Shown piece by piece: positions 538 to 48,610 of a DNA stretch of 64,000 nucleotides. The notes below the pieces were generated by a model. That model was not told where the DNA came from, did not search any database, and saw nothing but the letters and a program-made list of their open reading frames with translations. How positions within the stretch are numbered: the first letter of the stretch is position 1; the number at the start of each line of letters is the position of its first letter. Source of the stretch: Candidatus Limnocylindria bacterium (lineage in GTDB: Bacteria; Chloroflexota; Limnocylindria; QHBO01); the NCBI GenBank assembly GCA_038209995.1, contig JBBQXD010000003.1, positions 89,079-153,078 on the forward strand, read 5' to 3'. Made by a program: the position numbers and the translations under genes.

Positions 538-1139
538 CCGATCGGGACGCGGAGCTGCCCCCCGACGAGCGTCTCGCTCACCAGCCCCGCCAGGCGCTCC
601 CCGATCGCCCACCAGTCGAACTCCGCGGTCACCTGGCTGGCGGGAACCTCGATGAGCCGCTCCGCGGCGAGGTAGTCGGGCAGGATGCGGTCGAGGAGCG
701 CCTCGATCTCGTCACGGAACGCATCGTTCGTGCTCCGCACGCCGTCGGCGAGCAGCGCGACGTCAGGCAGCAGCCGCACCGAGAGGTCGTAGCTGGTCGC
801 CCAGCGTCGGATGAGCGGCTCGACGGCGAACGGGTCCTCGCCATCGGTCACCCGCAGGTAGTACGCGAAGTTGTCGACCACGGACCGATCGGTGACCAGC
901 ACCTCGGCGCGCTGCGCGAGCTCCAGCTCCTGCTGGACCTGGGTGAGCAGCACCCACAGCTGCGCCTCGGCCGTCGCCCCCTCGTTGAGGCCAAGCGGGT
1001 TGAAGCGGACCACCTCGCGGCCGACCTCGACGCTGCGCCCGGCGCGCCCGATGGTCGAGGCGAAGGCGTGCACCGCGTTCGACTTGCGCACCGAGTGTGA
1101 GCCGATGAACGCGATCTTGGCGTGACGCTGCCAGGGCAT
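534..1139 (-). CDS. P-loop NTPase (AAA_28/NadR-like ATPase family)
   Basis: 201-aa ORF. N-terminal Walker-A-like motif IAFIGSHSVRKS, followed by an acidic/hydrophobic Walker-B-like stretch (EVLVTDRSVVDNFAYY). Confidence 0.55.
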   Translation of the reverse strand: MPWQRHAKIAFIGSHSVRKSNAVHAFASTIGRAGRSVEVGREVVRFNPLGLNEGATAEAQLWVLLTQVQQELELAQRAEVLVTDRSVVDNFAYYLRVTDGEDPFAVEPLIRRWATSYDLSVRLLPDVALLADGVRSTNDAFRDEIEALLDRILPDYLAAERLIEVPASQVTAEFDWWAIGERLAGLVSETLVGGQLRVPIG

Positions 1140-1144
1140 ATGGC

Positions 1145-2521
1145 TCAGCCTGCCTCGACCGCCCGCAGGATCGAGGCGACGCTGGCGTCGGCGTCGGCCT
1201 CGGTCGTCGACCAGTTGCTCACGCTGATCCGCATCGCGGCGACGCCGTGCCAGGTCGTGCCGCCGATCCAGGCCACGCCCTCGGCCTGGACCCGCTCGAT
1301 CACCCGCCGCGTCCGCTCGTCGTCGTCACCGAAGCGGACGAGCACCTGGTTGAGGACCACGTCGTTCAGGACGGCGACGCCGTCGGCCGCGCGCAGCGCG
1401 TCGGCCATCCGCGTCGCGAGGTCGCAGCAGCGCTCGACCATGGCGCACACACCCTCGCGTCCCAGGGAGCGGATGGCGGCGTAGAGCGCGAAGCCGCGCG
1501 CCCGCCGCGAGCTGTCGAGCACGTACTCCCAGTTCTCGCGCAGCTCGCTGCGCATGAGGTATGCGGCCGTGGCGGCCATCGCCGCGCGATGCGCATCAGG
1601 GTCGCGAACGGCCACGAACCCGCAGTCGTAGCCGGCATTGAGCCACTTGTGCGCGTCGGTCGACCAGCTGTCCGCGCGGCTGACGCCCTCGACCAGGTGC
1701 CCGAGGCGCGGCGAGGTTGCCGCCCAGAGGCCGAAGGCGCCGTCGACATGGACCCAGGCGTTGCCGTGCGCCGCCGCTGCCTCGGCCACCGCGGCCGCCG
1801 GGTCGAAGGCGCCGGTGTTCACGTTGCCCGCCTGGAGGATGACGATCACCGGCCCGTCGGCCGCGTCAATCGCGGCCACCGCGGCATCGGCTTGCATGCG
1901 GCCCTGGTCGTCGGTCGGGATGCGCGCCACGCGCTCGCGACCGAGGCCGAGGTAGCCGAGCGCAGTGGCGACGGTGGCGTGGGCCTCGTCGCCGATGACG
2001 ACCGTGATCGGTGGCGCACCGGAGAGGCCCTTCGCTTCCACGTCCCAGCCCTCGCGGGCCAGGACCGCGCGGCGGCCGGCCGCCAGACCCACCGCGTTGC
2101 CGAGCCCCGCTCCGGTCGGCAGGCCGACGCTCGCGTCGCGCGGCAGGCCGAGCAGCTCGAGCATCCAGCCGCCGGCCACCTCCTCGGCCGCCGCGGCTGC
2201 GGGCGACAGCGCATGGAGGGCGCCGTTCTGCTGCCAAGCGCCGGTGAGCCAGTCGGCGGCCGCCGCGGCCGGCAGCGCGCCGCCGATCACGAAGCCGAAG
2301 TAGCGTGGCCCGGCGGACGCGACGAGCCCGGGGTCGACGGCCGCGGCGAGCTCCTCCACGACCGCGGTGGGATCCATGCCGGCGTCCGGCAGCGTCCCTT
2401 GCAGACGCTCGCGCACCGCCGCCGCGTCGGCCGTCGCCCCGACGTGGCGCTCGTCCAGGGAGTCGAGGAATGCGAGGCTGAGCTCCGCCGCACGGCGCAT
2501 GGCGTTAGCCCGTTCTTCCAT
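1145..2521 (-). CDS. pyridoxal-phosphate-dependent decarboxylase (group II, DDC/GAD/SPL-like)
   Basis: Fold-type I PLP motifs HVDGAFG and STDAHKWLNAGYDCG (PLP-lysine region). Start chosen at the internal Met (MEERANAMRR). The track ORF extends to 2554. Confidence 0.65.
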   Translation of the reverse strand: MEERANAMRRAAELSLAFLDSLDERHVGATADAAAVRERLQGTLPDAGMDPTAVVEELAAAVDPGLVASAGPRYFGFVIGGALPAAAAADWLTGAWQQNGALHALSPAAAAAEEVAGGWMLELLGLPRDASVGLPTGAGLGNAVGLAAGRRAVLAREGWDVEAKGLSGAPPITVVIGDEAHATVATALGYLGLGRERVARIPTDDQGRMQADAAVAAIDAADGPVIVILQAGNVNTGAFDPAAAVAEAAAAHGNAWVHVDGAFGLWAATSPRLGHLVEGVSRADSWSTDAHKWLNAGYDCGFVAVRDPDAHRAAMAATAAYLMRSELRENWEYVLDSSRRARGFALYAAIRSLGREGVCAMVERCCDLATRMADALRAADGVAVLNDVVLNQVLVRFGDDDERTRRVIERVQAEGVAWIGGTTWHGVAAMRISVSNWSTTEADADASVASILRAVEAG

Positions 2522-2841
2522 GGCGGCAGCGTAGCCGACGGGGCACGTCGGCAAACTGCCAGGCCACCGCCGATCGTCCGGATTGACGGCGGGACCCGCC
2601 CGCGCCTAGAGCCCCATTCCCTCAGACACTTGGCGCAGATCTACCTGAATGACAACAAGCGTTGGATCCGCCAACAGATGCGTGAACGAAAGATCATCGT
2701 TGACATCGGTCCAACAAAGTCTACCGACTCGATCGCCAGCATCTACTATTGGATGGAGTACTCGGTCACGATGGGCTACCTGGGGGTCATCCGCGCGTGG
2801 GGATGCACCAGGCGTCGCCTCGTGAGGAGGTCGCATCGACG

Positions 2842-3315
2842 ATGAGCCGGCCGGCGAACACTCCTTTGATTTTCTCCGATGTGTGCATTCAGGCGGCGCT
2901 CTTGGCCCGGGGAGACTGGATGGGCGTCGACGAACTCATGATCGACTACGAATACATCGCGCGGTCGACGCCATCGTTCGACAGTCTCAGCTTTGGAATC
3001 GCGCGGCTGGTCGCGAACGGCTTGGTGCAGGTCCGCGATGAGCCGAGTGAATCGTTCATGATGAGAGCCACGCAACGTACGTTTCGCACCGCTACGCCCG
3101 GTGTGGGCGTGATCGATTTCGCGATTCAATTGGCCCACGAGCTCGGAGTGACCCTCGACGAAAATCGGGAGGAAGATCGTTCTCATGGACGTGTCGACGG
3201 CCTAACCTACACGGAATACCAGAAGGCGGCGGGCGCCGGCGGCGAGTGGAAACATCTCGTTGACTCGCGCCTCCCGGGGGCACGCGGGCGCGACGGGCGC
3301 CCCCGCGAGGGCTGA
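2842..3315 (+). CDS. hypothetical protein (lower-GC islet)
   Basis: ATG preceded by GAGGAGG at the correct spacing. Local GC is visibly lower than in flanking genes. No recognisable motif. Confidence 0.4.
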   Translation: MSRPANTPLIFSDVCIQAALLARGDWMGVDELMIDYEYIARSTPSFDSLSFGIARLVANGLVQVRDEPSESFMMRATQRTFRTATPGVGVIDFAIQLAHELGVTLDENREEDRSHGRVDGLTYTEYQKAAGAGGEWKHLVDSRLPGARGRDGRPREG

Positions 3316-3463
3316 TCATGGTGGCACGGAAGGGCTCGCCGTGGCCGTGGCTTGTCGGCGGCGGTGGAGCGGGGGCTCTCTGGTGGCTCGCAAAGGGACT
3401 CGCGCCACTCTGCGGCCTGGGTGCCCCCGTCTGCGCGTGGGCGCTTTGAGCCCCGGAGCCCCA

Positions 3464-4153
3464 ATGAGCAGAAGTGTCCGCATCGTCGGGAGCCCGTCGA
3501 GTTGGCTCGTGATGCTGGAATTGCTCAGCCTCGATGGGGTCAGACCGTTCTGGTCACGGCTCAGCATCCGAGTGCGCCGCCAGCGTGAGCTTCAATCGAT
3601 GCTCCGCGACATGGTGCTCAAGCTTCGCGCGGCCCATGCCCGTCGCAATCGCGCCGCGATGTCTCGTGAGATCATTGCCGGACTGGAGCGCATCCGTCAG
3701 GAGATCTCAAGTCCAGCGGCCGAATCGATCGTGCGGCTTCGTGACCTCGAGGAACGATGGATGGTGCGCCCCGGTCGTGATTGGATCGGTGCTCTGTGGC
3801 TGTACGTCTACCAGCCCCGCAGCCAAGACACGTTGTCGTCCGGCATTCGGCCACAGATCCGGCGCTTGATCAAAGCTCGACTGGCCAGTGACCTGTGGCT
3901 CGATGAGACTGCTGCTGCGCTGTTCCCCGCGAAGAGCACGTGGGACGCTGAAATCGTCGAATCTAGATTCGTGGGCGGCGGACCGGATGCAATGGCTAAC
4001 GCCCTTCGAGAGTTACTCGAAGCGAGGGCGTATGCTTCCTTGCGCCGCGCCCTCAGACAGCACCTCAAAGGGACCGAGCGAGAGGCGTTGCGATCATGGG
4101 CGGTCACGTACGCGCGTGAGGACGGGGTGCGACCGGAGTTGCCACGTCTCTGA
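3464..4153 (+). CDS. hypothetical protein (lower-GC islet)
   Basis: 229-aa ORF starting MSRSVRIVGSP and rich in Arg/Leu. No recognisable motif. The track ORF 3260..4153 is trimmed to the internal ATG. Confidence 0.4.
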   Translation: MSRSVRIVGSPSSWLVMLELLSLDGVRPFWSRLSIRVRRQRELQSMLRDMVLKLRAAHARRNRAAMSREIIAGLERIRQEISSPAAESIVRLRDLEERWMVRPGRDWIGALWLYVYQPRSQDTLSSGIRPQIRRLIKARLASDLWLDETAAALFPAKSTWDAEIVESRFVGGGPDAMANALRELLEARAYASLRRALRQHLKGTEREALRSWAVTYAREDGVRPELPRL

Positions 4154-4169
4154 ATGGTCAAGGCCCCCG

Positions 4170-4745
4170 GCCGGCGCCGCCACCTGCGCCAGCCCAAACC
4201 TCACCCACGACTCCGCCGGCCGCACCGCGACCTGGAACGGCTGGACGTTCGGGTATGACGCCGACGGCCGGATGGTGAGCGCCTGCAAGAGTCCCACCGG
4301 CGCGCCGCGCTACGACACGGTGACCTTCGCCTATGACGGCGCCGGCCATAGGCACCCAGATCAGGGCGACCTCCGCCGCGGGTGCGGTCGCCACGACCGC
4401 TTTCGGCTACGCGGGCGCCGCGATCACCTCCGAGACGCTGACCGACGCATCCCACCGTCGGGCACTGTGGTGCGGCGCTACGCCGTCGACGGCGACGGGT
4501 CGATCGTGAAGGTCAGCATCCCGGGCGGCGAACCCGAGGCCGGTGACTGCCTCGTCACCTGGAACTGCCACGGCGACGCGCTCAACCTGCCGCGCCTCAA
4601 CGCCGACGGCACCACCACCCTCGCCAACAGCTACGCCTATTCATCAGGGGTGCGCCGACGACGTTCACCGACAACGGCATCGGCGACCTCGGCTTCCGCT
4701 TCCTGTACGTCGGCCGCCACGACGTGCAGTGGGACAATCCGTTAG
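4170..4745 (+). pseudogene. RHS/YD-repeat protein remnant (frameshifted, ends in an in-frame TAG)
   Basis: YD-repeat matches: TWNGWTFGYDADGRMVSA, YDTVTFAYDGAG, VRRYAVDGDGSIVKVSIPGGE, TLANSYAYSS. Alternate frames carry further YD-like text (AFGYAGAAITSETLTD; GFRFLYVGRHDVQWDNPLGL). The frame is broken by at least two shifts and a TAG at 4743-4745. Confidence 0.55.
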
Positions 4746-4763
4746 GGCTCGGCCTGGCCTTAC

Positions 4764-5324
4764 ATGCACGCCCGCCACTACGCGCCGGCGCTGGGACGGT
4801 TCCTGCAGCCTGACCCGGCTCGGCTGGAATCGAATAGTTACGGCTATGCCCGAGAAAATCCATTGACGAGGATGGATGCCAGCGGAACGGAGAGTTGGAC
4901 ACCGAACTCCTGGGAGTGGTCCGCTTGCTTCAAGTATCCGATCGCATGCGCCAGGTGGATGCGCGCCTCCTTCCTGGCACTGGTCGCAACCAGGACCATC
5001 TCGAGCGAGCGGCAACGCAATGCCATGAGACACTGCATCTGGAACTGCCTCATGACGGAGTCAATGAGGGCCTCGTGGGCGAATCTCTGGGCATACCTGC
5101 ACGAGGCTGGCGGTCCATTCCAACCGTTGGATACGCGTGTCGACCTCCACAATAACCGCGTAGGCGTGCTGTTCGGGCAGCAGGCCGGATTCTGGTTCTC
5201 GGGTCTTCCATGGGCGGCTGGCTTTTGCGAGGGCGTATGGAGGCGGGGACGGCTCTGGTATGTGGAATACAACAGAGTGGTCCGCACGTCCCTCGGAGTT
5301 AATGTGCCCAACGGTGCGCGCTAG
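4764..5324 (+). CDS. RHS C-terminal tip: core-end motif plus variable putative toxin domain (orphan)
   Basis: Same frame as the upstream remnant. Begins within the RHS core-end consensus (Y)MHARHYAPALGRFLQPDPARLESNSYGYARENPLTRMDASG. This is followed by about 140 aa of lower-GC sequence with conserved-looking His/Asp/Asn residues (AMRHCIWNCLM, AYLHEAGGP, DTRVDLHNNRVG). Confidence 0.6.
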   Translation: MHARHYAPALGRFLQPDPARLESNSYGYARENPLTRMDASGTESWTPNSWEWSACFKYPIACARWMRASFLALVATRTISSERQRNAMRHCIWNCLMTESMRASWANLWAYLHEAGGPFQPLDTRVDLHNNRVGVLFGQQAGFWFSGLPWAAGFCEGVWRRGRLWYVEYNRVVRTSLGVNVPNGAR

Positions 5325-5343
5325 GTAAATCGGCACAAAGACG

Positions 5344-5793
5344 ATGTTGAAGCAGATCGGGCTCGACCGGATCGTCCGGGCAGTTGTTCTCGTCGAAGTC
5401 ATCGGTATCATCGTGCTGGCTGGCTCGATCTTGTTCGATCCTCCTCCCCCGTACCGCACCGACATCGAGCGAGGGGTTTGGACCCTGATCAGCATTGACG
5501 GCCACGTTCAGCCGCCACCCGCACCACAGCTTGCTTTCCGAGGCGACGGCATGACTTGGACGAGCGACTGCCAAACGATCACCGGGGATGCGGTTCGCGA
5601 CAGTGACGGATCGATGATGCTCATTGGTGGCTTTCGGGTGCTGGCTGCTCGATGTTCACCTCAGCAAGACGCCGCCGAAAGGGCGCTCTTGGACGCGCTC
5701 GCGACTACCGAAACGTGGAGCGTCGAGACTGAGGACCTCATCGTGCTCCGCGGGGGTCGACACTCCATCACGCTGGCCCGGATCCCATCCTGA
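5344..5793 (+). CDS. membrane-anchored META/HslJ-like domain protein; candidate immunity protein for the upstream RHS tip
   Basis: Starts 20 nt after the tip stop. N-terminal TM helix (IVRAVVLVEVIGIIVLAGSILF), then a META-like pattern (WTLISIDG ... GSMMLIGGFRVLAARCSPQQ ... ETWSVETEDLIVLRGG). Lower GC. Confidence 0.5.
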   Translation: MLKQIGLDRIVRAVVLVEVIGIIVLAGSILFDPPPPYRTDIERGVWTLISIDGHVQPPPAPQLAFRGDGMTWTSDCQTITGDAVRDSDGSMMLIGGFRVLAARCSPQQDAAERALLDALATTETWSVETEDLIVLRGGRHSITLARIPS

Positions 5794-5802
5794 GCTGCCA
5801 GC

Positions 5803-6243
5803 GTGGGTCGCTCCTATCCCGGACAGCGCATAACGTTGCCGGATACGGTCGGCCGCCCGCCTCGTGACGCACGCCTCTCGGGCCGTGAGGCTTGGAAGGC
5901 TGCCGCTCTGCCAACTGAGCGGCGCGTCTCGCCTGATTTGGGGCGCATAACGATCATCCTCGCCAACCCGTCGAAGCCAGAAAGGCCCACCGCGGGCACC
6001 ACGATCCAAGAGCAGACGCGACAGTGCCTCGCGAACATCGCCGCCATCCTCAAGGCGGCCAGCAGCTCGATGGAGCAGGTCGTGAGCGCCACGTTCATCC
6101 TGCGCCGGCCTGAGGAACTCGCCGGCATGAACGAGGAGTTGGCGCGCTGGTTCCCGGTCGACCCGCCGGCCCGCCAGGGCGCGAAGGACCCGCTCGAGGT
6201 CGGCGACGCCCTCATCTCGATCGCGGCCATCGCGGTGACCTGA
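5803..6243 (+). CDS. ridA: RidA/YjgF/TdcF family (reactive enamine/imine deaminase)
   Basis: Aligns by eye to RidA over EQTRQCLANIAAILKAASSSMEQVVSATFIL ... ARWFP ... PARQGAKDPLEVGDALISIAAIAV. GTG start. Confidence 0.6.
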   Translation: MGRSYPGQRITLPDTVGRPPRDARLSGREAWKAAALPTERRVSPDLGRITIILANPSKPERPTAGTTIQEQTRQCLANIAAILKAASSSMEQVVSATFILRRPEELAGMNEELARWFPVDPPARQGAKDPLEVGDALISIAAIAVT

Positions 6244-6346
6244 GCCAGCGTCTCGCGTCACCCCGGCAGCGTCCCGGGGCCGGTGTATCGTATCGGCCTT
6301 CCCGTGGATGCCAGCCGTCCCGACCAGCTTCGGAGGACCGATCTTC

Positions 6347-7195
6347 ATGGCCCGAATCGTCCGCGCGGCGCTCCTCCAGGCGGAGTGGACCGGCGACAAG
6401 GAGTCGATGATCACCAAGCACGAGAGATACGCGCGCGAGGCGGCCGCCCAGGGCGCGAAGGTCATGTGCTTCCAGGAGCTCTTCTACGGCCCCTACTTCT
6501 GCCAGGTGCAGGACCCGCAGTACTTCAGCTACACCGAGCACATCCCCGACGGCCCGACCACGCAGCGCATGCAGGCGCTCGCCAAAGAGACCGGGATGGT
6601 CCTCATCGTGCCCATGTACGAGGAGGACGAGCAGACCACCGGCATCTACTACAACACCGCCGCGGTCATCGACGCCGACGGCTCGTACCTGGGCAAGTAC
6701 CGCAAGACCCACATCCCGCACGTGAAGGGCTTCTGGGAGAAGTACTACTTCCGCCCCGGGAACATGGGCTACCCGGTGTTCGACACTGCGGTCGGCAAGG
6801 TCGGCGTCTACATCTGCTACGACCGCCACTTCCCGGAGGGCGCCCGCGCGCTGGGGCTCAATGGGGCGGAGATCGTGTTCATCCCCTCCGCGACCTCGCG
6901 CGGCCTCTCCGAGTACCTGTGGCGCGTCGAGCAGGTGAGCCATGCGCTGGCCAACGGCTACTACGTGGGGACGATCAACCGGGTCGGCATCGAGCCGCTC
7001 GGCGATGACGACTTCTACGGGCAGTCGTACTTCGTGGATCCGCGCGGGCAGTTCATCGGCGACGTCGGCGACTCGCACGACGAGGAGCTCATCGTCCGCG
7101 ACCTCGACCTCGACAAGATCACCGAGGTGCGCCAGACGTGGCAGTTCTTCCGCGATCGGCGCCCGGACGCGTACGACGACCTCGTCCGACCGTAG
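6347..7195 (+). CDS. beta-ureidopropionase (beta-alanine synthase; carbon-nitrogen hydrolase family)
   Basis: Long collinear match to beta-ureidopropionases: KTHIPHVKGFWEKYYFRPGNMGYPVFDTAVGKVGVYICYDRHFPEGARALGLNGAEIVFIPSATSRGLSEYLWRVEQVSHALAN. Nitrilase-type E-K-C triad context. GGAGG RBS before the ATG at 6347. Confidence 0.75.
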   Translation: MARIVRAALLQAEWTGDKESMITKHERYAREAAAQGAKVMCFQELFYGPYFCQVQDPQYFSYTEHIPDGPTTQRMQALAKETGMVLIVPMYEEDEQTTGIYYNTAAVIDADGSYLGKYRKTHIPHVKGFWEKYYFRPGNMGYPVFDTAVGKVGVYICYDRHFPEGARALGLNGAEIVFIPSATSRGLSEYLWRVEQVSHALANGYYVGTINRVGIEPLGDDDFYGQSYFVDPRGQFIGDVGDSHDEELIVRDLDLDKITEVRQTWQFFRDRRPDAYDDLVRP

Positions 7196-7199
7196 ACCG

Positions 7200-8216
7200 A
7201 TGGACTTCGGGTTCACGCTGAAGCCGGATCATCGGTTCGAGCGCAGCGTCGATCTCGCACGCCGGGCGGAGGGCAACGGCTTCAGCTACGGGTGGATGTT
7301 CGATAGCCACGTGCTGTGGCGCGATCCGTACCCGCTGCTGACCCTCATCGGCGCGGCGACCGAGACGATGCGCCTCGGAACCTGCGTCACGAACCCAGCC
7401 ACCCGCGACGTCACCGTCACCGCCTCCGCGCTCGCGACCCTCAACGAGGTGACCGGCGGACGCATGGTGCTGGGCATCGGTCGCGGCGACAGCGCGCGGC
7501 GGGTGATGGGCAAGCCGCCGACCACGGTCGCCTACATGGAGGAGTGCTGCCGCATCGTGCGCGCGCTCACCGCGGGCGAGGCGGTGACCCTCGATGGCAC
7601 CGAGATCCGGCTGCCGTGGGCCACGCACGGGCCGGTGCCGATCTGGGTGGCCGGCTATGGACCGATGGCGCTGGCCGCAGCCGGCCGGGTGGCGGACGGC
7701 ATCATCCTCCAGCTCGCCGATCCGGACATCATCCGCTGGTGCATGGGCTTCGTCCGCGCGGCGGCCGAGGAGGCGGGGCGTGACCCGGACGCGATCGAGG
7801 TCATGGCTGCCGCCGCGGCCTACATCTCCGACGACGTCGAGGACGCCCGCGAGCGGGTGCGCTGGTTCCCGGCCCTCGTCAGCAACCACGTCATGAACCT
7901 CATCAACAAGTACCCGAAGGAGGAGCTGCCCGACGCCCTCTGGCGCTACGTCGAGAACCGCGAGGGCTACGACTACCACCACCACGCGGAGGTGGGGAGC
8001 GACAATGCCCGTTTTGTGACCGACGAGATCGTCGACCGCTTCACGATCGTCGGGCCGCCGGCCGCCCACCGTGAGCGGCTGGCCGAGCTCCGCGACGCCG
8101 GGGTCACGCAGCTCAACGTCTACCTCATGAACGGGAACGAGGAGGAGCAGCTCGACCTCTACGAGCCGATCATCCAGCGTGAATCGGCCTCGGAGGCGTC
8201 CGCTCCGACGAGCTGA
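7200..8216 (+). CDS. luciferase-like monooxygenase (LLM) family oxidoreductase, probable F420-dependent (Mer-like)
   Basis: LLM/Mer-like pattern: MVLGIGRGD, PIWVAGYGPMALAAAGRVADGIILQ, and conserved C-terminal TIM-barrel segments. Start MDFGF is 5 nt after the upstream stop. Confidence 0.7.
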   Translation: MDFGFTLKPDHRFERSVDLARRAEGNGFSYGWMFDSHVLWRDPYPLLTLIGAATETMRLGTCVTNPATRDVTVTASALATLNEVTGGRMVLGIGRGDSARRVMGKPPTTVAYMEECCRIVRALTAGEAVTLDGTEIRLPWATHGPVPIWVAGYGPMALAAAGRVADGIILQLADPDIIRWCMGFVRAAAEEAGRDPDAIEVMAAAAAYISDDVEDARERVRWFPALVSNHVMNLINKYPKEELPDALWRYVENREGYDYHHHAEVGSDNARFVTDEIVDRFTIVGPPAAHRERLAELRDAGVTQLNVYLMNGNEEEQLDLYEPIIQRESASEASAPTS

Positions 8217-8264
8217 GGGCGTGCCGTTTGCGCCGGAGCGGAACTAACGACGAAGGAAGGCCCG

Positions 8265-8289
8265 ATTCCGGCCCGAACGCGGCCGGAAT
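8265..8289. terminator. hairpin (ATTCCGGCC / GGCCGGAAT, 7-nt loop) between convergent genes
   Basis: Perfect 9-bp inverted repeat followed by TT. Lies between the + LLM gene (ends 8216) and the - HhH-GPD gene (ends 8402). Confidence 0.35.
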
Positions 8290-8401
8290 TTGGCGCCGAG
8301 CGCACATCGCGTCAAAGCAGTCGCGTCTCCTTCGTCGTTGATTGCGCCTGGAAGCAATCGCCGGTCCGGCCGGGGGCAGCCCGGCCGGCAAGGGCGGGGA
8401 C

Positions 8402-9007
8402 TCAGCGGCGGCGGTCGCTGTTCTTGTCGGCCCAGGGCTCGAATGAGCCTCCCTGCTCGCGCAGGGTCGCCTTGTAGGCTCGCTTCTTCGCCTGATAGTC
8501 GGCGAGCGCCGCCGGCGAGTCAACATCGCCGAGGGTCGGATAGTTCGGGAGCCGCTCGTCGGTTCCCGGCGGTCGGATGCCGAGCCGGAGGGCGAGGACG
8601 GCGAACAGGGCGCGGACCTTCATGTCGCCGAAGCCGGGCAGCGCGCCGATCCGCCGCTGGAGATCAGCGGCATCGGTCGCATCGGTCCAGACTCGCGATG
8701 CATCGCCCTCGTAGACGGTCGCCACGTGGGCAGCCAGCTCATGGACCCGCTTTGCCATCGCGCCGGGGAAGCGGTGGATCGCCGGTGGACCCTTGGCGGC
8801 TGCCAGCAGCGCCGCCTCGTCCACCGCCGCGAGCCGCCGAGCGTCGAGCGTGCCGAGGCGGGCAAGCAGCACCTTCGGGCCGGAGAAGGCCTTCTGCACC
8901 GGCACCTGCTGGTCGAGCGCGAAGCCGATGAGGAGCGCCATCGGGTCGCTGACGAGCAGCTGGTCGGCCTCGTCGTCGCCGGTGAAATGAAGCCGATCGG
9001 TGGTCAT
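8402..9007 (-). CDS. HhH-GPD superfamily base-excision-repair-like protein
   Basis: N-terminal pattern LHFTGDDEADQLLVSDPMALLIGFALDQQVPVQKAFSGP and a helix-hairpin-helix-like region, typical of uncharacterised HhH-GPD proteins. Start at the internal Met (MTTDR). Confidence 0.5.
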   Translation of the reverse strand: MTTDRLHFTGDDEADQLLVSDPMALLIGFALDQQVPVQKAFSGPKVLLARLGTLDARRLAAVDEAALLAAAKGPPAIHRFPGAMAKRVHELAAHVATVYEGDASRVWTDATDAADLQRRIGALPGFGDMKVRALFAVLALRLGIRPPGTDERLPNYPTLGDVDSPAALADYQAKKRAYKATLREQGGSFEPWADKNSDRRR

Positions 9008-9063
9008 GATCGGCCCATCGTACGCCCGCTCTGGCGCGGCGAGGGCGCTGCCCCGTGGCCCAT

Positions 9064-9507
9064 TCACGAGATGTCGCCGAGGTAGATGACCGACAGGTGG
9101 CGGCTGCCTCGCAGCGACCGATCATTCGTGACGAAGGCTGTCGCGCCTGCCGCGCGGGCGGTCGCCAGATGGATTGCGTCCGCCAGGCTGACCTTGCGCA
9201 GCCCTCGGATGATCGCCGCCTCCACTGCCAGATCCGCCGTCAGGGGGTGGATCCCTAGGCCCGCGATCGAACGAAGCTCGTCGGCATAGCGTTCGACCAG
9301 GGCAGCGTCACCGGATCGCGCCGGCCCGGTCGCCAGCTCAGCCAGCCCGATGCTCGCCATCACGCCCCCGACCTCGCCTGCCTCGATCGCATCGACCAGC
9401 GCCTGACCGATGGCAGCGAGCGGCTGCACACCCTCCAGGAGATAGATCAGGACATTCGCATCCAATGCGATGCGCCGATGGTGACGGCAGAGCTCGCCGA
9501 TGGTCAT
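9064..9507 (-). CDS. vapC: PIN-domain ribonuclease toxin VapC
   Basis: IALDANVLIYLLEG (N-terminal acidic PIN motif) and SLADAIHLATA ... FVTNDR. Overlaps the upstream antitoxin by 4 nt. Confidence 0.75.
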   Translation of the reverse strand: MTIGELCRHHRRIALDANVLIYLLEGVQPLAAIGQALVDAIEAGEVGGVMASIGLAELATGPARSGDAALVERYADELRSIAGLGIHPLTADLAVEAAIIRGLRKVSLADAIHLATARAAGATAFVTNDRSLRGSRHLSVIYLGDIS

Positions 9508-9758
9508 CGCCCGAGGCGATCCAGCCGCTCCTCCCATTCGTCACGGAGAGCCCGCACATACGAGACCGGGTCAGGGGGGTACATGCCGCGCCCCAGTCCG
9601 ATCAGCCGCTCGGAAGCACGACCGGCGCGCGGTGTCAGGACGACGCGCCCGTCCTGGATCTCAACCTCCAGGCGGTCGCCGGCCTTGATCCCGAGGGCGC
9701 GGCGCGCCTCCGACGGAACGACGATCTGGTGCTTAGCACTGACCTTGACGCTTAGCAT
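9504..9758 (-). CDS. vapB: AbrB/MazE-type (SpoVT/AbrB fold) antitoxin VapB
   Basis: 84 aa with a swapped-hairpin motif (KHQIVVPSEARRALGIKAGDRLEVEIQDGRVVLTP). Placed immediately upstream of vapC with an ATGA overlap. Confidence 0.7.
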   Translation of the reverse strand: MLSVKVSAKHQIVVPSEARRALGIKAGDRLEVEIQDGRVVLTPRAGRASERLIGLGRGMYPPDPVSYVRALRDEWEERLDRLGR

Positions 9759-9900
9759 GATGCTGAGGCTAAGCGCTGCGGCGCGCGGCCGTCAATCGGG
9801 TCTTTGGATCAGTGACTGGCACCAGCCCTTCGATTGGTGTACCGCACGGCGCTAGGATGTGACCCCATCCGCCACGAACCCTCCGAGGGAGGCACCAATT

Positions 9901-11280
9901 TTGCGCACCCTGATCACCGGTGGAACCATCGTCAACGCCGATGCCACGACGAGGGCGGACCTGCTCGTTGACGGGGAGCGCATCGCCCTCATCGGTACCG
10001 ATCTCGCCGTCACCGCCGACGTCACCATCGACGCGACCGGGAAATGGGTCATCCCCGGGGCGATCGATGTCCATACCCACATGCAGCTGCCCTTCGGCGG
10101 CACGTTCGCTAAGGACACCTTCGAGACCGGCACCCGTGCCGCTGCCTTCGGTGGCACCACCACGATCATCGACTTCGCGGTCCAGCCCCGCGGCGGCTCG
10201 CTGCGCCAGGGATTGGACGCCTGGCACGAGAAGGCCGATGGAAGGGCGTGCATCGACTACGCGTTCCACATGATCGTCAGCGACGTGCGCGACGACGTGC
10301 TCGCCGAGATGGACAGCCTCGTCGACGAGGGGGTGACCAGCTTCAAGCTGTTCACCGCCTACCCAGGCGTCTTCTACAGCGACGACGGCGCGATCCTCCG
10401 GGCCATGCAGCAGACCGCGAAGAACGGCGGCCTGATCATGATGCACGCCGAGAACGGGATGGCGATCGACGTCGTAGCCGGACAGAACGTGGCCGCGGGA
10501 CACACCGATCCGTACTACCACGGCACGTCGCGGTCGCCGGTCTTCGAGGGCGAGGCGACGAACCGCGTCATCCGCCTTGCGGAGGTCGCCGGGTCGCCGG
10601 TCTACATCGTCCATCTCTCGGCGCGCGAGGCGCTCAACGAGGTCCGACGGGCACGGGCCGAGGGGCTGCCGGCGTTCGCCGAGACGTGTCCGCAGTACCT
10701 GTTCCTGTCGCTCGAGGACATGGGCAACGGGTTCGAGGGCAGCAAGTTCGTGTGCTCGCCTCCACTGCGCCCCGCCGATCACCAGGAGGAGTTGTGGACG
10801 GGGCTCCGCCGAGACGACCTGCAGGTCGTCTCGACCGACCATTGCCCGTTCGACTTCCACGGTCAGAAGGAGATGGGACGCGGCGACTTCCGAAAGATCC
10901 CGAACGGCCTGCCGGGCGTCGAGAACCGCGTCGACCTGCTTCATTCCGGCGGCGTGCGCGAGGGACGGCTGACGCCGAACCGATGGGTGGAGGTCATCTC
11001 CGCCGCGCCGGCGCGGATGTTCGGCCTCGCGCAGAAGGGCGCCATCGCGGCCGGCCTCGATGCCGACATCGTGGTCTACGACCCGGGCCGCGCCCACACC
11101 ATCAGCGCCGCGAGCCACCACATGGACGTCGATTACTCGTGCTACGAGGGCTGGGAGGTCACCGGCGGCGCGGACATGGTCATGAGCCGCGGCAAGACGA
11201 TCGTGGATGGTGACGCGTGGAAGGGCGCCGCCGGCGATGGCCGCTTCGTGAAGCGCCAGCGATCCGTGCACCTCCGCTGA
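9901..11280 (+). CDS. dihydropyrimidinase / D-hydantoinase (cyclic amidohydrolase)
   Basis: Metal-binding HTH (IDVHTHMQLPFGG) and DFAVQ. The carbamylated-Lys region and later motifs (HLS, DHCPF, HxxAE) are collinear with hydantoinases. TTG start (LRTLITGGTIVN) with GGGAGG 8 nt upstream. The track ORF starts at 9859. Confidence 0.8.
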   Translation: MRTLITGGTIVNADATTRADLLVDGERIALIGTDLAVTADVTIDATGKWVIPGAIDVHTHMQLPFGGTFAKDTFETGTRAAAFGGTTTIIDFAVQPRGGSLRQGLDAWHEKADGRACIDYAFHMIVSDVRDDVLAEMDSLVDEGVTSFKLFTAYPGVFYSDDGAILRAMQQTAKNGGLIMMHAENGMAIDVVAGQNVAAGHTDPYYHGTSRSPVFEGEATNRVIRLAEVAGSPVYIVHLSAREALNEVRRARAEGLPAFAETCPQYLFLSLEDMGNGFEGSKFVCSPPLRPADHQEELWTGLRRDDLQVVSTDHCPFDFHGQKEMGRGDFRKIPNGLPGVENRVDLLHSGGVREGRLTPNRWVEVISAAPARMFGLAQKGAIAAGLDADIVVYDPGRAHTISAASHHMDVDYSCYEGWEVTGGADMVMSRGKTIVDGDAWKGAAGDGRFVKRQRSVHLR

Positions 11281-11367
11281 TCGGTTGCCCCGATTGCGTA
11301 TCCTTCGGGGGCCGACAACGGTCCGAGCACAGGCTGCGCTGATCGGCTGCTACGAGAACTGCCCAAC

Positions 11368-11985
11368 GTGACCACCAGACTTGCCTCGCGCGGCCTGATC
11401 GCCGCGCTGGCGCTCGCCCTCGCCGCCTGCTCCTCCGGCGGCACATCGTCGAGCGCCTCGAGCTCCGCATCGACCTCGGAGAGCACCGCCGCGTCAGCGA
11501 GCAGCGAGGCCTCCCAGAGCGCGGGGGAGTCGACCGGCGCCCGGTCGTCGTTCGGCATCAACGGCGACCCGGAGCTCAGCCAGCGGCTGCAGACCGCGCT
11601 CGGCTCGAATGGCAACGTCGTCAGCATGCGCGGCGACCAGTTCCTCGCCGCTGGCGCGGATCAGAGCATGAAGGACTTCCTCGCTGGCGTCGGCGCGCAG
11701 ACGTCCGACATGTCGATCGCGTTCGCGGCCACAGCGGATGGGCTCACCGTCTACGCCATGCGCATCCTCGGCACGAACGAGAGCCAGCTGCGCGACAAGT
11801 TCGGCGCGACCGTCGGCAGCGGGATGGGCGGCACGCAGGAGACGAACGTCGGCGGCAAGAAGGTCCTGAGCATCACGAATCCGACCACCCCATCGAACTT
11901 CTACCTGTATTTCAAGGACGACACCGTGTACTGGATGATGGGCCGCGAGGCTCAGGCGGCGACCATCCTCTCGAAACTCCCGTAA
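11368..11985 (+). CDS. lipoprotein, hypothetical (Ser-rich linker)
   Basis: Signal peptide and lipobox (LALALAACSSG), then a poly-Ser/Ala/Glu low-complexity linker and a globular C-terminal region. Confidence 0.55.
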   Translation: MTTRLASRGLIAALALALAACSSGGTSSSASSSASTSESTAASASSEASQSAGESTGARSSFGINGDPELSQRLQTALGSNGNVVSMRGDQFLAAGADQSMKDFLAGVGAQTSDMSIAFAATADGLTVYAMRILGTNESQLRDKFGATVGSGMGGTQETNVGGKKVLSITNPTTPSNFYLYFKDDTVYWMMGREAQAATILSKLP

Positions 11986-12047: not shown

Positions 12048-12950
12048 GTGACCGGCTCGCCACTCCCGCGCCCCGCGGCAGTCGTCCTCAACGCGGCCGC
12101 CGGGACCGCGACCACCGACCGCACCCGACGCATGGTGGAGCTCGTGCGCGCCGGCCTCGATGCCGACCTCGTGACGGTCGCCACCCGGGATGCGGACGAG
12201 CTGGCGGCCCTTCTCCAGGATCGGCTGGGCGGCTACCAGACGGTCATCGTCGCCGGCGGGGACGGCACCCTGAGCGTCACCTACAACGTGCTCGCCGGCT
12301 CGGCGGTCACGATCGGCTATCTGCCGGCCGGCTTCGGGAACGCCACCGCCCACCTCCTCCGCCTGCCGCGCGATCCCGAGGCGATCGCGGCCACGGTGCT
12401 CACCGGTGACGCCCGTTCTGTCGACCTGGTCCGGGTCGGCGGCCGCCTGGCACTCTTCGCCGGCACCGGCTGGGACGCCCACGTCGCCGGTCGCTACGCC
12501 GATGCCGGCGCGAAGGGGACCCGCGGCTGGCTGCGTGCCATCGGCGGCGCCGTGCCGAGCCTGTTCCGCCGCCCCATCGTGCGGCTCACCGTCGACGGCA
12601 CGGTCGCGCATGAAGGACCAATGGAGCTGCTCGTGGCATCCACGACGCCCTACTTCGGCCGCGGCCTGCTCGTGAACCCCGGGGCGCGTTCGCAGTCCGG
12701 CACGATGCGGCTGCGCGTCTACGGCGGTCCGGCCGCCATGCTTGCCCTCGAGGCCGTGCGGTGGGCAGCGCGCCGTCTTCCGGCGGCCGTCCCGGTCGAC
12801 GGTTCCGCGGCGGAGCTCGAGGTGATCGAGGCATCGGGCAGGGGCGTCCCGCTGCAGGTCGACGGTGATCGCATCGGCACCGAGCGTACCTGGCGCTTCG
12901 AGCTCGCGCCCGCCGCCGTACGTTTGATCGGGAATTGGCGGGGCGGATGA
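12048..12950 (+). CDS. diacylglycerol kinase catalytic-domain lipid kinase (YegS/DagK family)
   Basis: DAGK_cat motifs: VIVAGGDGTLSVTYNVL and IGYLPAGFGNATAH. Confidence 0.7.
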   Translation: MTGSPLPRPAAVVLNAAAGTATTDRTRRMVELVRAGLDADLVTVATRDADELAALLQDRLGGYQTVIVAGGDGTLSVTYNVLAGSAVTIGYLPAGFGNATAHLLRLPRDPEAIAATVLTGDARSVDLVRVGGRLALFAGTGWDAHVAGRYADAGAKGTRGWLRAIGGAVPSLFRRPIVRLTVDGTVAHEGPMELLVASTTPYFGRGLLVNPGARSQSGTMRLRVYGGPAAMLALEAVRWAARRLPAAVPVDGSAAELEVIEASGRGVPLQVDGDRIGTERTWRFELAPAAVRLIGNWRGG

Positions 12951-15051: not shown

Positions 15052-15083
15052 GAGAGAGGCCGGCCGGCGTGCCGGCCTCTCTC
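15052..15083. terminator. bidirectional intrinsic-terminator-like hairpin (GAGAGAGGCCGGC / GCCGGCCTCTCTC)
   Basis: Perfect 13-bp inverted repeat with a 6-nt loop, 17 nt after the + gene stop. It overlaps the stop codon of the convergent cinA gene. Confidence 0.55.
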
Positions 15084-16215
15084 ATGTGCGCGGGGCGGTG
15101 AGCGCTCTGCGGACCGCATCCAGCGCGGCGTAGGCAGCGCGGCGCTGGCGCTGCGGGCCGCTGCCGTGGATCGAGAGCTCGACCATCGGAACACTGATGA
15201 CGCCGCTCAGCGCGACGTGAACGCGGCTTCGACCATGGACGCCTGCCTCGAGCAGCGAGAGCTGCAGCACGGCGTCCGCGAGCGGCACGGCCGCCAGCCC
15301 GCCGACGTCGAGCATGCCGCCGACATAGGTCGCGGCGCGGTCGACCACGTCGGCGCCGGCCAGGATCGCGAGCAGGGCGCCCTCGGTATCCGCCTCCCAG
15401 GAGGCGGCTGAATCGGCACCGGCGGCGCCGAGCGCGGCCAGCGCCACGGCGCCGAGCTCGTCGGCATCGGTCCCCCAGGCGTCGTCGTCGAGCGCGGCGA
15501 GGCAGCGGTCGACGAGCGCGTCGAGCGGCGCGTCATCGTCGCGTGACGAGAAGCGGAGATGCACGCCGTCGTCGCGGGCGTAGATGCCGGCCTCGATCTC
15601 GGTCCCGGGGTGCTCGAGCATGTCGCCGAGCAGATCTGCCACCCGGGACTCGCCGAGGCCCCAGGTCTTCACGGTGCGTGTGCGGAGTGGCGCGAGCGCG
15701 AGGCGCCCCCGCAGCCGAGGCACCACCTCGTCGCCCCACATGCGGCGCATCTCGGACGGCACGCCCGGCAGGAGCACGCAGACCGATCCGTCGCGGTCGA
15801 CCCACCAGCCCGATGCCGACCCGATTGGGTTGGCGAGGAGCTCCGCGGACGCGATGCGCATCGCCTGGCGGAGGTTGCTGGCAGGGAAGGCGCCGAGCCC
15901 GCGCCACCGGGCGCGGAGCGCGCGGGCCAGCTCCGGGTCCTCGGCGAGCGGCTCGCCGAGGGCGTCGGCCAGCCCCTCGCGGGTCAGGTCATCGTGGGTG
16001 GGCCCGAGGCCGCCGGTGGCGACGACGAGCACCGTCTCGGAACGCGCCATTGTGAATGCGGCCGCGATGACGGCCCGGTCGTCGGGGAGTGCCCGGATCC
16101 CGCGCAGCTCGACGCCGAGCCGCGCGAGCTCGGCGCCCAGATGCGCCGCGTTCGTGTCGACCGTCTCGCCGCGCAGGATCTCGCTGCCGATGCTGAGGAT
16201 CTGGGCGGTGGCCAT
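15082..16215 (-). CDS. cinA: CinA family protein (MoCF-biosynthesis-like N domain plus nicotinamide-nucleotide amidohydrolase-like C domain)
   Basis: N-terminal AQILSIGSEILRGETVDTNAAHLG and C-terminal CinA domain (SGGLGPTHDDLT ...). 377 aa. Confidence 0.75.
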   Translation of the reverse strand: MATAQILSIGSEILRGETVDTNAAHLGAELARLGVELRGIRALPDDRAVIAAAFTMARSETVLVVATGGLGPTHDDLTREGLADALGEPLAEDPELARALRARWRGLGAFPASNLRQAMRIASAELLANPIGSASGWWVDRDGSVCVLLPGVPSEMRRMWGDEVVPRLRGRLALAPLRTRTVKTWGLGESRVADLLGDMLEHPGTEIEAGIYARDDGVHLRFSSRDDDAPLDALVDRCLAALDDDAWGTDADELGAVALAALGAAGADSAASWEADTEGALLAILAGADVVDRAATYVGGMLDVGGLAAVPLADAVLQLSLLEAGVHGRSRVHVALSGVISVPMVELSIHGSGPQRQRRAAYAALDAVRRALTAPRT

Positions 16216-16370: not shown

Positions 16371-16426
16371 ACATCGGGCTACGATGGTCGCTCCGAAAAA
16401 CAGAGCGCATCTTGTTGGAGACCCGA

Positions 16427-16840
16427 GTGGCAGAGACGATCACGACGAGCACGGTCCTCGGCCCCGCACTGCGGGAGTGGCTCATCGCCGAGCTCCGGTT
16501 CCCAGTGATGGCCACCATTCGCAGCGACGGCATGCCGAGCCAATCGGTCGTGTGGTTCGACCTCGACCCGCAGGACGACAACTCAATCCTCCTCAACACG
16601 AAGGCGGGGAGGGTCAAGCATCAGCACCTGCTGCGGGACCCGCGGATCAGCCTCTGCTTCGAGGACGGCTACGACTACGTCACCCTCGAGGGGCGGGTCG
16701 AGCTCGTCGACGAGCCGGTGCAGGGCCTGCGGGTCATCCAGGACCTCGCCCGTCGCTACGACGACGATCCATCGGTCTTCGACGGCCAGCAGCGCGTCAC
16801 GATCCACATGCGCATCGAGCGCGTGATTCGGCATGACTGA
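16427..16840 (+). CDS. PPOX-class (pyridoxamine-5'-phosphate-oxidase-like) probable F420-dependent enzyme
   Basis: Split-barrel pattern (PVMATIRSDGMPSQSVVWFDLD ... SILLNTKAGRVKHQHLLRDPRISLCFEDG ... YVTLEGRVELV). GTG start with GGAGA upstream. The track starts at 16412. Confidence 0.65.
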   Translation: MAETITTSTVLGPALREWLIAELRFPVMATIRSDGMPSQSVVWFDLDPQDDNSILLNTKAGRVKHQHLLRDPRISLCFEDGYDYVTLEGRVELVDEPVQGLRVIQDLARRYDDDPSVFDGQQRVTIHMRIERVIRHD

Positions 16841-17783
16841 GGCGGCCGATGGCAGCCTGAAGCTCGGCGCGCTGTTCTGGAACCAGTACACCGCGTGGCC
16901 TGCGTTCCGGTCCGCTGCGATGCGTGCCGACGAGCTCGGCTTCGACGACCTGTGGACCTGGGACCACCTGTACCCGATCGTGGGGAACCACGAGGGACCG
17001 ATGTTCGAGGCGTGGCTGACCCTCGCCGCGTGGGCGGAGGCGACCTCGCGGGCAAGGCTGGGGCTGATGGTCGGCGCGAACACGTTCCGCAACCCGGCGC
17101 TGGTGGCCAAGATGGCGACCACCCTCGACCACATCTCCGGCGGCCGCGCGATCCTCGGCATCGGCGGGGCGTGGTTCGAGACCGAGCATGCCGCCTTCGG
17201 GATCGAGTTCGGCGGCTCGCCCGGGGAGCGGCTGCGCTGGCTCGACGAGGCGGCGCGCATGATGCGCGGCATGCTCCACGGGGAGCGGCCGTCCGGCGAC
17301 CGCTACTATGCCGCTCGCGAGGTGCGCAACGACCCGCCACCTGTCCAGGCCCACCTGCCGCTGCTGATCGGCGGCGGCGGGGAGCGGCGCACGCTGCGGA
17401 CCGTCGCCCGCTACGCGGATGCCTGCAACTTCGGCGGCGGCTTCGAGAACGTCCGGCACAAGGACGAGGTGCTCCGCCGCCACTGCGACGAGATCGGCCG
17501 CGACGAGGCGGAGATCGAGCGCACGGTGGGCGTCGGCGTCTGCATCATCCGCGACGATCCGGCGGAGGCGCGCCGAGTTCTCGAGGCGACCTTCGCGCGC
17601 AATGGCGACGCCCGCCCGTGGCAGAGCCAGCTGGTGGGGACGCCGGAGCAGGTCGCCGAGCAGCTCCGCCCGTTCCTGGGGATCGGATTCCGGCACCTCA
17701 TCGTGGGCTTCCCGTCGCCGCACGACGCGGTGTCGCTCGAGCGATTGGCGACCGAGGTCCGCCCGCTGCTCGCCGGCTCATGA
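16833..17783 (+). CDS. LLM-class F420-dependent oxidoreductase
   Basis: LLM TIM-barrel pattern (DDLWTWDHL, RARLGLMVGANTFRNPALVAKMATTLDHISGGRAILGIGGAW). Overlaps the upstream gene by 8 nt and the downstream cofD by ATGA. Confidence 0.7.
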   Translation: MTEAADGSLKLGALFWNQYTAWPAFRSAAMRADELGFDDLWTWDHLYPIVGNHEGPMFEAWLTLAAWAEATSRARLGLMVGANTFRNPALVAKMATTLDHISGGRAILGIGGAWFETEHAAFGIEFGGSPGERLRWLDEAARMMRGMLHGERPSGDRYYAAREVRNDPPPVQAHLPLLIGGGGERRTLRTVARYADACNFGGGFENVRHKDEVLRRHCDEIGRDEAEIERTVGVGVCIIRDDPAEARRVLEATFARNGDARPWQSQLVGTPEQVAEQLRPFLGIGFRHLIVGFPSPHDAVSLERLATEVRPLLAGS

Positions 17784-48504: not shown

Positions 48505-48610
48505 GGCGGCGATGGTACTCGCGTCGCCGGTGGGCGAGGCGAGGCCGCTGCGCCGTGCGCCGGATCGGCCGGCCCGGGGCTTGCCGGGTCGTGCTTGGTA
48601 GACTCGGGCG

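Follow-up and report, generated by a model that had tools for sequence, protein, structure and literature searches.

The DNA analyzed here, a 64,000 nt stretch of contig JBBQXD010000003.1 (positions 89,079 to 153,078, forward strand; assembly GCA_038209995.1) from Candidatus Limnocylindria bacterium, hereafter called the window, carries genes for a dihydropyrimidinase and a CN-hydrolase of the kind that serve the hydrolytic steps of reductive pyrimidine catabolism (Pyd), and raises the question of which enzyme performs the reductive first step. Both hydrolases are present in the window and are kept together across related loci, while the canonical reductase is missing and a gene for a luciferase-like oxidoreductase (LLM) of family TIGR03842 stands in its place. 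From comparative genomics we consider it probable (roughly 0.8) that LLM is an F420H2-dependent uracil/thymine reductase, and with much the same confidence we regard it as a non-orthologous displacement of dihydropyrimidine dehydrogenase. An earlier note on this DNA had proposed such a reductase from the sequence, and comparative evidence of three kinds now supports the proposal: conserved linkage, absence of PreT/PreA at the loci, and the occurrence of LLM in one operon with cof and fno genes. Three things were established directly: the identities of the genes, their conserved linkage, and the lack of PreT/PreA at the loci.

Open reading frames (ORFs) in the window, which has a G+C content of ~70%, were called from the GC content of the third codon position (GC3) and compared with Pfam and NCBIfam profiles (Table 1). 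The genes for the CN-hydrolase, LLM and dihydropyrimidinase were found at the coordinates and start codons previously claimed for them, as judged by GC3-supported ORFs, ribosome-binding sites and profile matches. LLM had been described as lying 5 nt after the CN-hydrolase gene; the adjacency stands, but the gap between the TAG stop (7193-7195) and the ATG at 7200 is 4 nt. The bracketing of LLM by the two hydrolases likewise holds as an order of genes, although three genes on the opposite strand separate LLM from the dihydropyrimidinase.

The downstream hydrolase, with a TTG start at 9901 preceded by a GGGAGG site, is predicted to be of the dihydropyrimidinase/D-hydantoinase type (TIGR02033); all of the binuclear-metal ligand motifs (DVHTHM, FKLF, MHAENG, IVHLS and STDHCP) are seen in its translation, and the best solved structure is D-hydantoinase 1yny (1.6e-146). 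The CN-hydrolase (282 aa) begins at an ATG (6347) preceded by a GGAGGA ribosome-binding site, and its Glu-Lys-Cys catalytic triad is conserved. Its best hidden Markov model (HMM) is that of N-carbamoylputrescine amidase (aguB; 271.6 bits, under the cutoff of 410) and its best structure is also an N-carbamoylputrescine amidase (5h8i, 1e-62), with beta-ureidopropionase 2vhh at 5e-51. Near the active site, the motifs HIPhVkgF, ICYDRHFPE and PSATSrgLSeyLW match 2vhh, and the insertion found in N-carbamoylputrescine amidase is lacking, a feature in which the protein resembles beta-ureidopropionase. It is best called a candidate beta-ureidopropionase, assigned mainly from context plus these local motifs. 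The former description of it as a clear beta-ureidopropionase goes too far, given that the overall best match is to another enzyme.

Neither of these hydrolases is accompanied by a conventional reductase. Profile scans of all GC3-supported ORFs in the window revealed no DHO_dh, PreA or PreT-type protein, and no homolog of the E. coli proteins PreT and PreA was detected by tblastn in the 64 kb, so that the claimed absence of a PydA/PreTA-type dehydrogenase from the window is borne out by both approaches.

To place the window in a wider context, GTDB was scanned using one genome per species and an 8-sequence alignment as query, giving 80 loci from Chloroflexota, Acidobacteriota, Binatota and Dormibacterota, the neighboring genes of which were identified by tblastn and ORF clustering. 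The nearest relatives are Limnocylindria metagenome-assembled genomes (MAGs). A dihydropyrimidinase (DHP) and/or CN-hydrolase (CNH) is found within 10 kb of LLM in 73 of the 80 loci (DHP in 64, CNH in 57), and in 69 of them the nearest of the two lies no more than 700 bp away. Where at least 5 kb is available on each side, 36 of 39 loci have either hydrolase, or 37 of 39 by ORF clustering, which adds L020. At least five gene orders were seen, and they differ by lineage: CNH>LLM>DHP in Chloroflexota; <DHP >LLM <NCS1 <CNH in Terriglobia; CNH>NCS1>LLM>DHP in Acidiferrales; and NCS1>LLM>CNH>DHP>MMSDH>aminotransferase in Dormibacterota, where MMSDH is the (methyl)malonate-semialdehyde dehydrogenase. 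In Streptomyces alboflavus and S. lavendulae a single strand carries CNH>aminotransferase>DHP>LLM, and the order is DHP>LLM in Streptomyces sp. BHT-5-2 and S. rimosus. Since gene order changes from lineage to lineage, simple inherited synteny is unlikely to be the cause of the linkage, which was observed in six phyla and many arrangements.

The genes that recur around LLM cover most of a route from nucleosides to acyl-CoA. They include transporters (NCS1 permease and the nucleoside transporter NupC), enzymes of nucleoside breakdown (pyrimidine-nucleoside phosphorylase, cytidine deaminase, a RihA-like nucleoside hydrolase and DeoC) and enzymes of the beta-alanine end (class-III aminotransferase and CoA-acylating MMSDH, TIGR01722). 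Between nucleoside uptake and acyl-CoA, reduction of the base is the sole step without a candidate gene, and LLM is the sole universally conserved gene of these clusters without a role.

The same two hydrolases could in principle belong to a hydantoin (D-amino-acid) system, in which LLM would serve as an ene-reductase or as a redox helper, with 5-substituted hydantoins as substrates. The earlier note had offered an ene-reductase of a hydantoin pathway as its alternative. D-hydantoinases also fall in TIGR02033, and CN-hydrolase-type D-carbamoylases exist (1erz is a distant match to the window protein, 2.6e-25). However, hydantoin-type hydA loci carry a racemase and a D-carbamoylase, whereas no hydantoin racemase occurs in any LLM locus, and LLM was not found in the three hydantoin-type loci L094, L097 and L099. 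The neighbors of LLM are instead pyrimidine-nucleoside and beta-alanine-type genes and RutR-like regulators. With the racemase missing from one set of loci and LLM from the other, the hydantoin alternative was set aside as very unlikely.

No conventional first-step reductase was found at the related loci either. In ~95 LLM loci, tblastn searches of ~10 kb around each gave no PreA, and no PreT other than a PreT-like gene (31% identity) in L073, while the same E. coli PreT and PreA probes detected control loci at 35% and 42–44% identity. The exchange of one reductase for the other can be seen between close relatives. Leisingera and Qingshengfaniella carry orthologous hydA (74% identity), M20 hydrolase (73%) and TetR (47%) genes; Qingshengfaniella has PreT-like and preA genes but lacks LLM, whereas in Leisingera the LLM module is present and PreT/PreA are not. 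The canonical PreT/PreA layout of Qingshengfaniella is the same in Burkholderia multivorans. More generally, the canonical Pyd clusters (E. coli preTA, and those of B. multivorans and Qingshengfaniella) share with the LLM loci the dihydropyrimidinase, carbamoylase, beta-alanine aminotransferase and semialdehyde dehydrogenase, the NCS1/NMT1-type ABC transporters, a RutR-like regulator and the overall course of reactions that leads from uracil to beta-alanine. LLM itself is non-homologous to the canonical enzyme: it is a single polypeptide of ~335 aa with no DHO_dh-type FMN domain and no Fe-S/FAD subunit, and its predicted electron donor is F420H2 instead of NAD(P)H. Known dihydropyrimidine dehydrogenases are all iron-sulfur flavoproteins of the PydA/PreTA type, including a ferredoxin-dependent enzyme from Clostridium chromiireducens (PMC7332683). 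The latter provides a precedent for a lineage-specific change of electron donor at the first step of Pyd, but it remains a PydA homolog, whereas at the LLM loci the protein family itself would be replaced.

A different explanation is that LLM acts elsewhere in pyrimidine or beta-alanine metabolism, for example in the conversion of malonate semialdehyde to 3-hydroxypropionate or in the reduction of a modified pyrimidine or nucleoside, and that a canonical dehydrogenase is encoded elsewhere in the genome. The PreTA/PydA searches spanned the window and the ~10 kb around each locus, which leaves room for such a gene, and the characterized F420-dependent LLM proteins include alcohol/ketone oxidoreductases, with Adf (1rhc), FGD1 and FGD2 among the matching folds (see below). 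Many loci, however, already have a dedicated CoA-acylating dehydrogenase for the semialdehyde, and LLM is linked far more tightly to the dihydropyrimidinase and carbamoylase than to the aminotransferase or the semialdehyde dehydrogenase. Close relatives differ only by the swap of PreT/PreA for the LLM module, and a role at another step would leave the reductive step without a candidate in ~95 loci. We regard this explanation as unlikely, and a reductase of uracil and thymine as the better account of LLM.

Evidence for the cofactor comes from the protein itself. LLM aligns with TIGR03842 over model positions 1-322 of 329 and passes the curated NCBIfam cutoff. Its AlphaFold model (mean pLDDT 84.6, pTM 0.86) was compared with the PDB using Foldseek, and the top 13 matches are to Mer, FGD2 and FGD1, the complexes of Mer with F420 being best; Adf (1rhc) is also listed. 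Mer is the nearest solved sequence as well (3.4e-36), followed by other F420 enzymes. The previous assignment of LLM as a Mer-like, F420-type protein is upheld by the TIGR03842 score and these fold matches, and LLM is predicted, from sequence and modeled structure, to be an F420-class enzyme with F420 as cofactor. The fold and sequence likeness to Mer (PDB 8qpl, 1z69 and 1f07) reaches a TM-score of 0.77–0.80, and the two proteins have in common the N-terminal segments GxxVTNP and GIGxGD, which we take to be F420-binding. They differ in that LLM falls below both Mer HMM cutoffs (TIGR03555, 155.2 bits against 348.7; NF002619, 170.1 against 276) and has Thr6 in alignment with Glu6 of Methanocaldococcus jannaschii Mer, the residue mutated in PDB 8qq8. 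Residues 205-280 of LLM are left unaligned with Mer, and have motifs that are specific to the family and conserved throughout it (RWFPALVSNHV, R254, Y259 and D275); methanopterin genes are absent from the context. Identity of LLM with Mer was rejected, since both equivalog cutoffs are missed and Glu6 is replaced by Thr. The family is large, with ~8,000 homologs below 1e-20, and strongly conserved (57–87% identity across phyla, and 80–87% among MAGs of several phyla). In a neighbor-joining tree, Pyd-linked members occur in all four of the TIGR03842 subclades examined. One representative, P0121, stands on a 2 kb contig and offered no gene neighborhood.

RutA is a luciferase-like enzyme that acts on uracil, and this raises the possibility that LLM resembles it in function, as an FMN-dependent pyrimidine oxygenase that would open the uracil ring by oxidation. 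The two proteins share the luciferase-like superfamily, RutA clusters are RutR-controlled, and a RidA-like fragment (the family of RutC) is found upstream in the window. RutA, however, uses FMN and O2 for oxidative ring cleavage, and the Rut pathway has no dihydropyrimidinase, an enzyme that requires a reduced, not an oxidized, ring. The RutA model TIGR03612 (cutoff 498 bits) does not appear in the best 25 of the 28 NCBIfam matches to LLM, which puts its score below 26.5 bits; the top matches are all F420-class and the best folds are F420 enzymes. LLM is also co-operonic with genes for F420 synthesis and Fno, and the RidA fragment is truncated and not found in relatives. An oxygenase of this kind is extremely unlikely.

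In the window, F420-related genes comprise cofD, cofC and cofE plus two more F420-class enzymes. A full F420 biosynthesis operon had been placed 8 kb from the Pyd genes; cofD-cofC-cofE do pass their equivalog cutoffs, but the block is incomplete and begins 9.6 kb past the LLM stop, and no Fo synthase (cofG/cofH or fbiC) was found in the 64-kb window. Overlaps of a few bases join the PPOX gene to that of the second LLM, and the latter to cofD, and together with cofD-cofC-cofE these genes apparently form one operon.

In Proteobacteria the F420 genes and LLM come together. On Leisingera plasmids, LLM ends a cofG-cofH-cofD-cofC-cofE-npdG(fno)-LLM operon with a RutR-like TetR gene alongside, and a divergent operon carries pntA-pntB-omega-aminotransferase-M20 carbamoylase-hydA-NCS1. 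Similar arrangements are present in Cohaesibacter (hydA-ABC transporter-cof...LLM), Marinobacterium (DHP<NCS1<M20, divergent from RutR-like TetR>cof...LLM), Pseudovibrio (cof...LLM flanked by Pyd genes) and abundant marine MAGs (DHP>ABC>cof...fno>LLM>aminotransferase). The Pyd genes beside cof-fno-LLM are thus hydA, M20 carbamoylase, NCS1/NMT1-type ABC transporters and omega-aminotransferase, and only Paracoccus alcaliphilus, among the proteobacterial loci, lacks Pyd genes nearby; the binding protein of the Paracoccus ABC transporter is 22–25% identical to the Chloroflexota one, a similarity judged uninformative. The M20 carbamoylase (beta-ureidopropionase) of these bacteria is not homologous to the CN-hydrolase, indicating that LLM tracks the pathway and not one gene family. 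The TetR regulators next to the LLM operon match RutR best (198 bits, against <42 bits for any other family), and those of Marinobacterium and Pseudovibrio have a TetR_C_3 domain; RutR is a regulator of pyrimidine utilization. Fno is an NADPH-dependent F420 reductase that makes F420H2. Since Fno is co-operonic with LLM, and the first step is the only reduction of the pathway, the arrangement suggests that LLM consumes F420H2. In L093 (Leisingera plasmid NZ_CP041156.1, 9611-12628), the first genes of the Pyd operon are pntA and pntB, for a proton-translocating transhydrogenase, which suggests a dedicated electron route from NADPH through Fno to F420H2.

The same neighborhoods might be read as placing LLM in the biosynthesis or maintenance of F420, for example as a dehydro-F420-0 reductase beside a stand-alone CofE. 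LLM is always the last gene of cofGHDCE-fno in Proteobacteria, it adjoins cofE in three Chloroflexota loci (L081, L082 and L085), and the CofE of the window is of the stand-alone form. Pathways that use phosphoenolpyruvate require a reductase for dehydro-F420-0 (PMC8498797). Outside the Proteobacteria, however, 69 of 80 loci have Pyd and not cof genes within 700 bp of LLM, and most are without any cof gene. LLM is also found in the Pyd operons of Streptomyces, in which the bifunctional FbiB already reduces dehydro-F420-0. A role in making F420, as opposed to one in using it for pyrimidine reduction, is accordingly given very little credence. In L081, L082 and L085 the TIGR03842 gene lies amid two or three other LLM paralogs; Pyd genes are missing nearby in L081 and L082, and in L085 they are 4–7 kb off.

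In the proposed pathway, the window would encode a reductive Pyd module in which the TIGR03842 LLM, using reduced F420, replaces PydA/PreTA at the first step. F420H2 would be made elsewhere, by Fno or an Fgd-type enzyme, and would bind the Mer-like TIM barrel at its C-terminal face. The substrate, reaction direction and chemistry of LLM are inferred, and the ring positions are drawn by analogy: the C5 hydride of F420H2 would pass to C6 of uracil or thymine, and an acid of the enzyme would protonate C5 to give 5,6-dihydrouracil or 5,6-dihydrothymine. The dihydropyrimidinase would then open the ring to an N-carbamoyl-beta-amino acid, which the CN-hydrolase would convert to beta-alanine or beta-aminoisobutyrate, CO2 and NH3. 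In relatives, the class-III aminotransferase and CoA-acylating MMSDH would finish the route. A broader version of the proposal, to which we give about even odds, is that TIGR03842 is a metal-free, single-subunit, F420H2-dependent dihydropyrimidine dehydrogenase, and that marine Alpha- and Gammaproteobacteria keep and horizontally transfer the F420 operon and Fno as a RutR-controlled supply for that step. If so, pyrimidine scavenging would be a main physiological reason for F420 in Proteobacteria, Chloroflexota and Acidobacteriota.

Several observations weigh against the assignment of LLM as the pyrimidine reductase. No member of TIGR03842 has been characterized: the NCBIfam entry is a hypothetical equivalog, and the only GO term on annotated records is the root term "biological_process", which names no specific process. 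Characterized F420-dependent LLM proteins are known to reduce imines or ketones, or to oxidize alcohols, and for C=C bonds the better-known F420-dependent reductases are those of FDOR, an unrelated family. The modeled structure of LLM is of low confidence at residues 36-40 and 261-267, both of them conserved loops. Canonical copies of PreTA/PydA could lie elsewhere in the genomes, outside the window and the ~10 kb covered per locus. The cluster of the window is split by the HhH-GPD, PIN toxin and AbrB/MazE antitoxin genes, and the module is minimal, with transporter, aminotransferase and semialdehyde dehydrogenase all missing nearby. Some members of the family have no Pyd neighbors, namely those of L073, L081 and Paracoccus alcaliphilus, and in S. 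venezuelae (L090, 3855-10999) LLM follows cydA-cydB-cydDC with no Pyd gene within 10 kb, unlike in three other Streptomyces loci, which may reflect a rearrangement or hint at a second role.

Full-text literature searches gave no description linking F420 or TIGR03842 to pyrimidine catabolism, and no account of such an enzyme, in keeping with the suggestion that the pathway variant was undescribed. Two published proposals come near it. In the reductive uric-acid clusters of Chloroflexota, an F420 luciferase-family protein may replace the dihydropyrimidine dehydrogenase-like reductase YgfK/UacX, according to a bioinformatic proposal from 2025 (PMC12507026). The likeness lies in an F420 LLM proposed in place of such a reductase in Chloroflexota; that pathway, compared here by description only, is one of purines, and its neighbors SsnA, YgeW, YgeY and YgeX are absent beside LLM. 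The study lists NADH, ferredoxin and F420 as reductant variants of the uric-acid enzymes and does not name an F420-dependent Pyd enzyme (PMC12507026). Secondly, genetic evidence indicates that the uracil ring of mureidomycins is reduced by NpsU/SSGG-03002, a putative F420/FMN oxidoreductase of the napsamycin and mureidomycin pathways, although in-vitro activity was not obtained (PMC10714638). NpsU, again compared by description only, acts on a uridyl-peptide antibiotic and not on free uracil, and belongs to a small family (42 BLAST hits). With an F420-dependent reductase, the cluster would be a new version of the known Pyd pathway. If the assignment is correct, a large, strongly conserved orphan family would gain a function, and the dihydropyrimidine dehydrogenase step a new enzyme class. 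A review of 2021 left open what F420 does in Proteobacteria and Chloroflexi, stated that no F420H2-dependent reductase from these bacteria had yet been studied, and noted that F420 is present at trace levels in both Oligotropha carboxidovorans and Paracoccus denitrificans (PMC8498797); these levels could be accounted for if uracil, acting by way of a RutR-like repressor, induces the cof operon. Biocatalysis would benefit from a small enzyme that is predicted to have no Fe-S clusters and may for that reason tolerate oxygen, and the assignment would also help to annotate the recycling of nitrogen in metagenomes of soil and marine origin.

Table 1. Features of the window around the Pyd genes and the F420-related genes.
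Feature	Position	Strand	Evidence
AAA_28 ATPase	534-1139	-	profile search
Pyridoxal phosphate (PLP)-dependent decarboxylase	1145-2554	-	profile search
Lower-GC stretch, weak ORFs	2554-5800		
RidA-like ORF, truncated	5803-6243	+	profile search
CN-hydrolase, carbamoyl-amidase branch, candidate beta-ureidopropionase	6347-7195	+	Pfam CN_hydrolase, 1.2e-65
LLM, TIGR03842 luciferase-like oxidoreductase	7200-8216	+	415.9 bits, cutoff 295.45
HhH-GPD protein	8402-9067	-	TIGR03252, 164.9 bits vs 136.5
PIN toxin	9064-9537	-	profile search
AbrB/MazE antitoxin	9504-9758	-	profile search
Dihydropyrimidinase	9901-11280	+	TIGR02033, 557.8 bits, cutoff 393.25
Hypothetical gene	11368-11985	+	
Lipid kinase	12048-12950	+	profile search
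CinA	15082-16215	-	profile search
F420-class PPOX protein	16412-16840	+	TIGR03618
Second LLM	16833-17783	+	TIGR03560-like, 228 bits, just below cutoff 231
cofD, 2-phospho-L-lactate transferase	17780-18715	+	TIGR01819, 316 bits vs cutoff 257; Pfam CofD
cofC, 2-phospho-L-lactate guanylyltransferase	18712-19314	+	TIGR03552, 158 bits vs cutoff 105
cofE, F420-0:L-glutamate ligase, stand-alone form	19311-20090	+	TIGR01916, 254 bits vs cutoff 181

Rfam and tRNA scans of the window gave no matches, and a promoter/terminator scan of positions 5600-11500 gave a signal no better than chance. The stretch between the PLP-dependent decarboxylase and CN-hydrolase genes has a GC content of 65–67%, against ~70–72% elsewhere, and contains weak ORFs that are RHS-repeat-like or belong to DUF6973 (4764-5324) and the META domain (5344-5793). 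Because the decarboxylase and CN-hydrolase genes directly adjoin in the relative L004, this stretch resembles an inserted island, possibly the remnant of a polymorphic toxin. The RidA/Rid-family ORF that follows it matches model positions 37-120 of 121, so that its N-terminus appears to be truncated, and it has no counterpart in relatives; it is probably a gene fragment brought by the island and not a RutC-like member of the pathway. The decarboxylase shows weak similarity both to PanP, an aspartate 1-decarboxylase, and to diaminobutyrate decarboxylase. In several Limnocylindria relatives its gene is found on the opposite strand, upstream of the CN-hydrolase, directly adjoining it only in L004; a tie to beta-alanine metabolism is possible.

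On the other side of LLM, the HhH-GPD base-excision gene is kept at the same place in the Limnocylindria-type relatives L002-L004, L009 and L010 (72–77% identity); the position of a DNA glycosylase with a link to uracil at this site may be coincidental. The PIN toxin and AbrB/MazE antitoxin genes (9064-9758, minus strand) are VapBC-like and form an insertion that separates the HhH-GPD gene from the dihydropyrimidinase; no match to the PIN toxin was obtained by tblastn in the same five close relatives. Farther away, a second CN-hydrolase (47623-48693, minus strand, 356 aa) has an N-terminal extension and an archaeal-type nitrilase as best match; its gene overlaps that of an EamA transporter at the latter's start and has no relation to the Pyd module. 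Two DUF885 paralogs (22740-24395 and 29452-31305) lie 5 kb apart, the second adjoining a TetR regulator.

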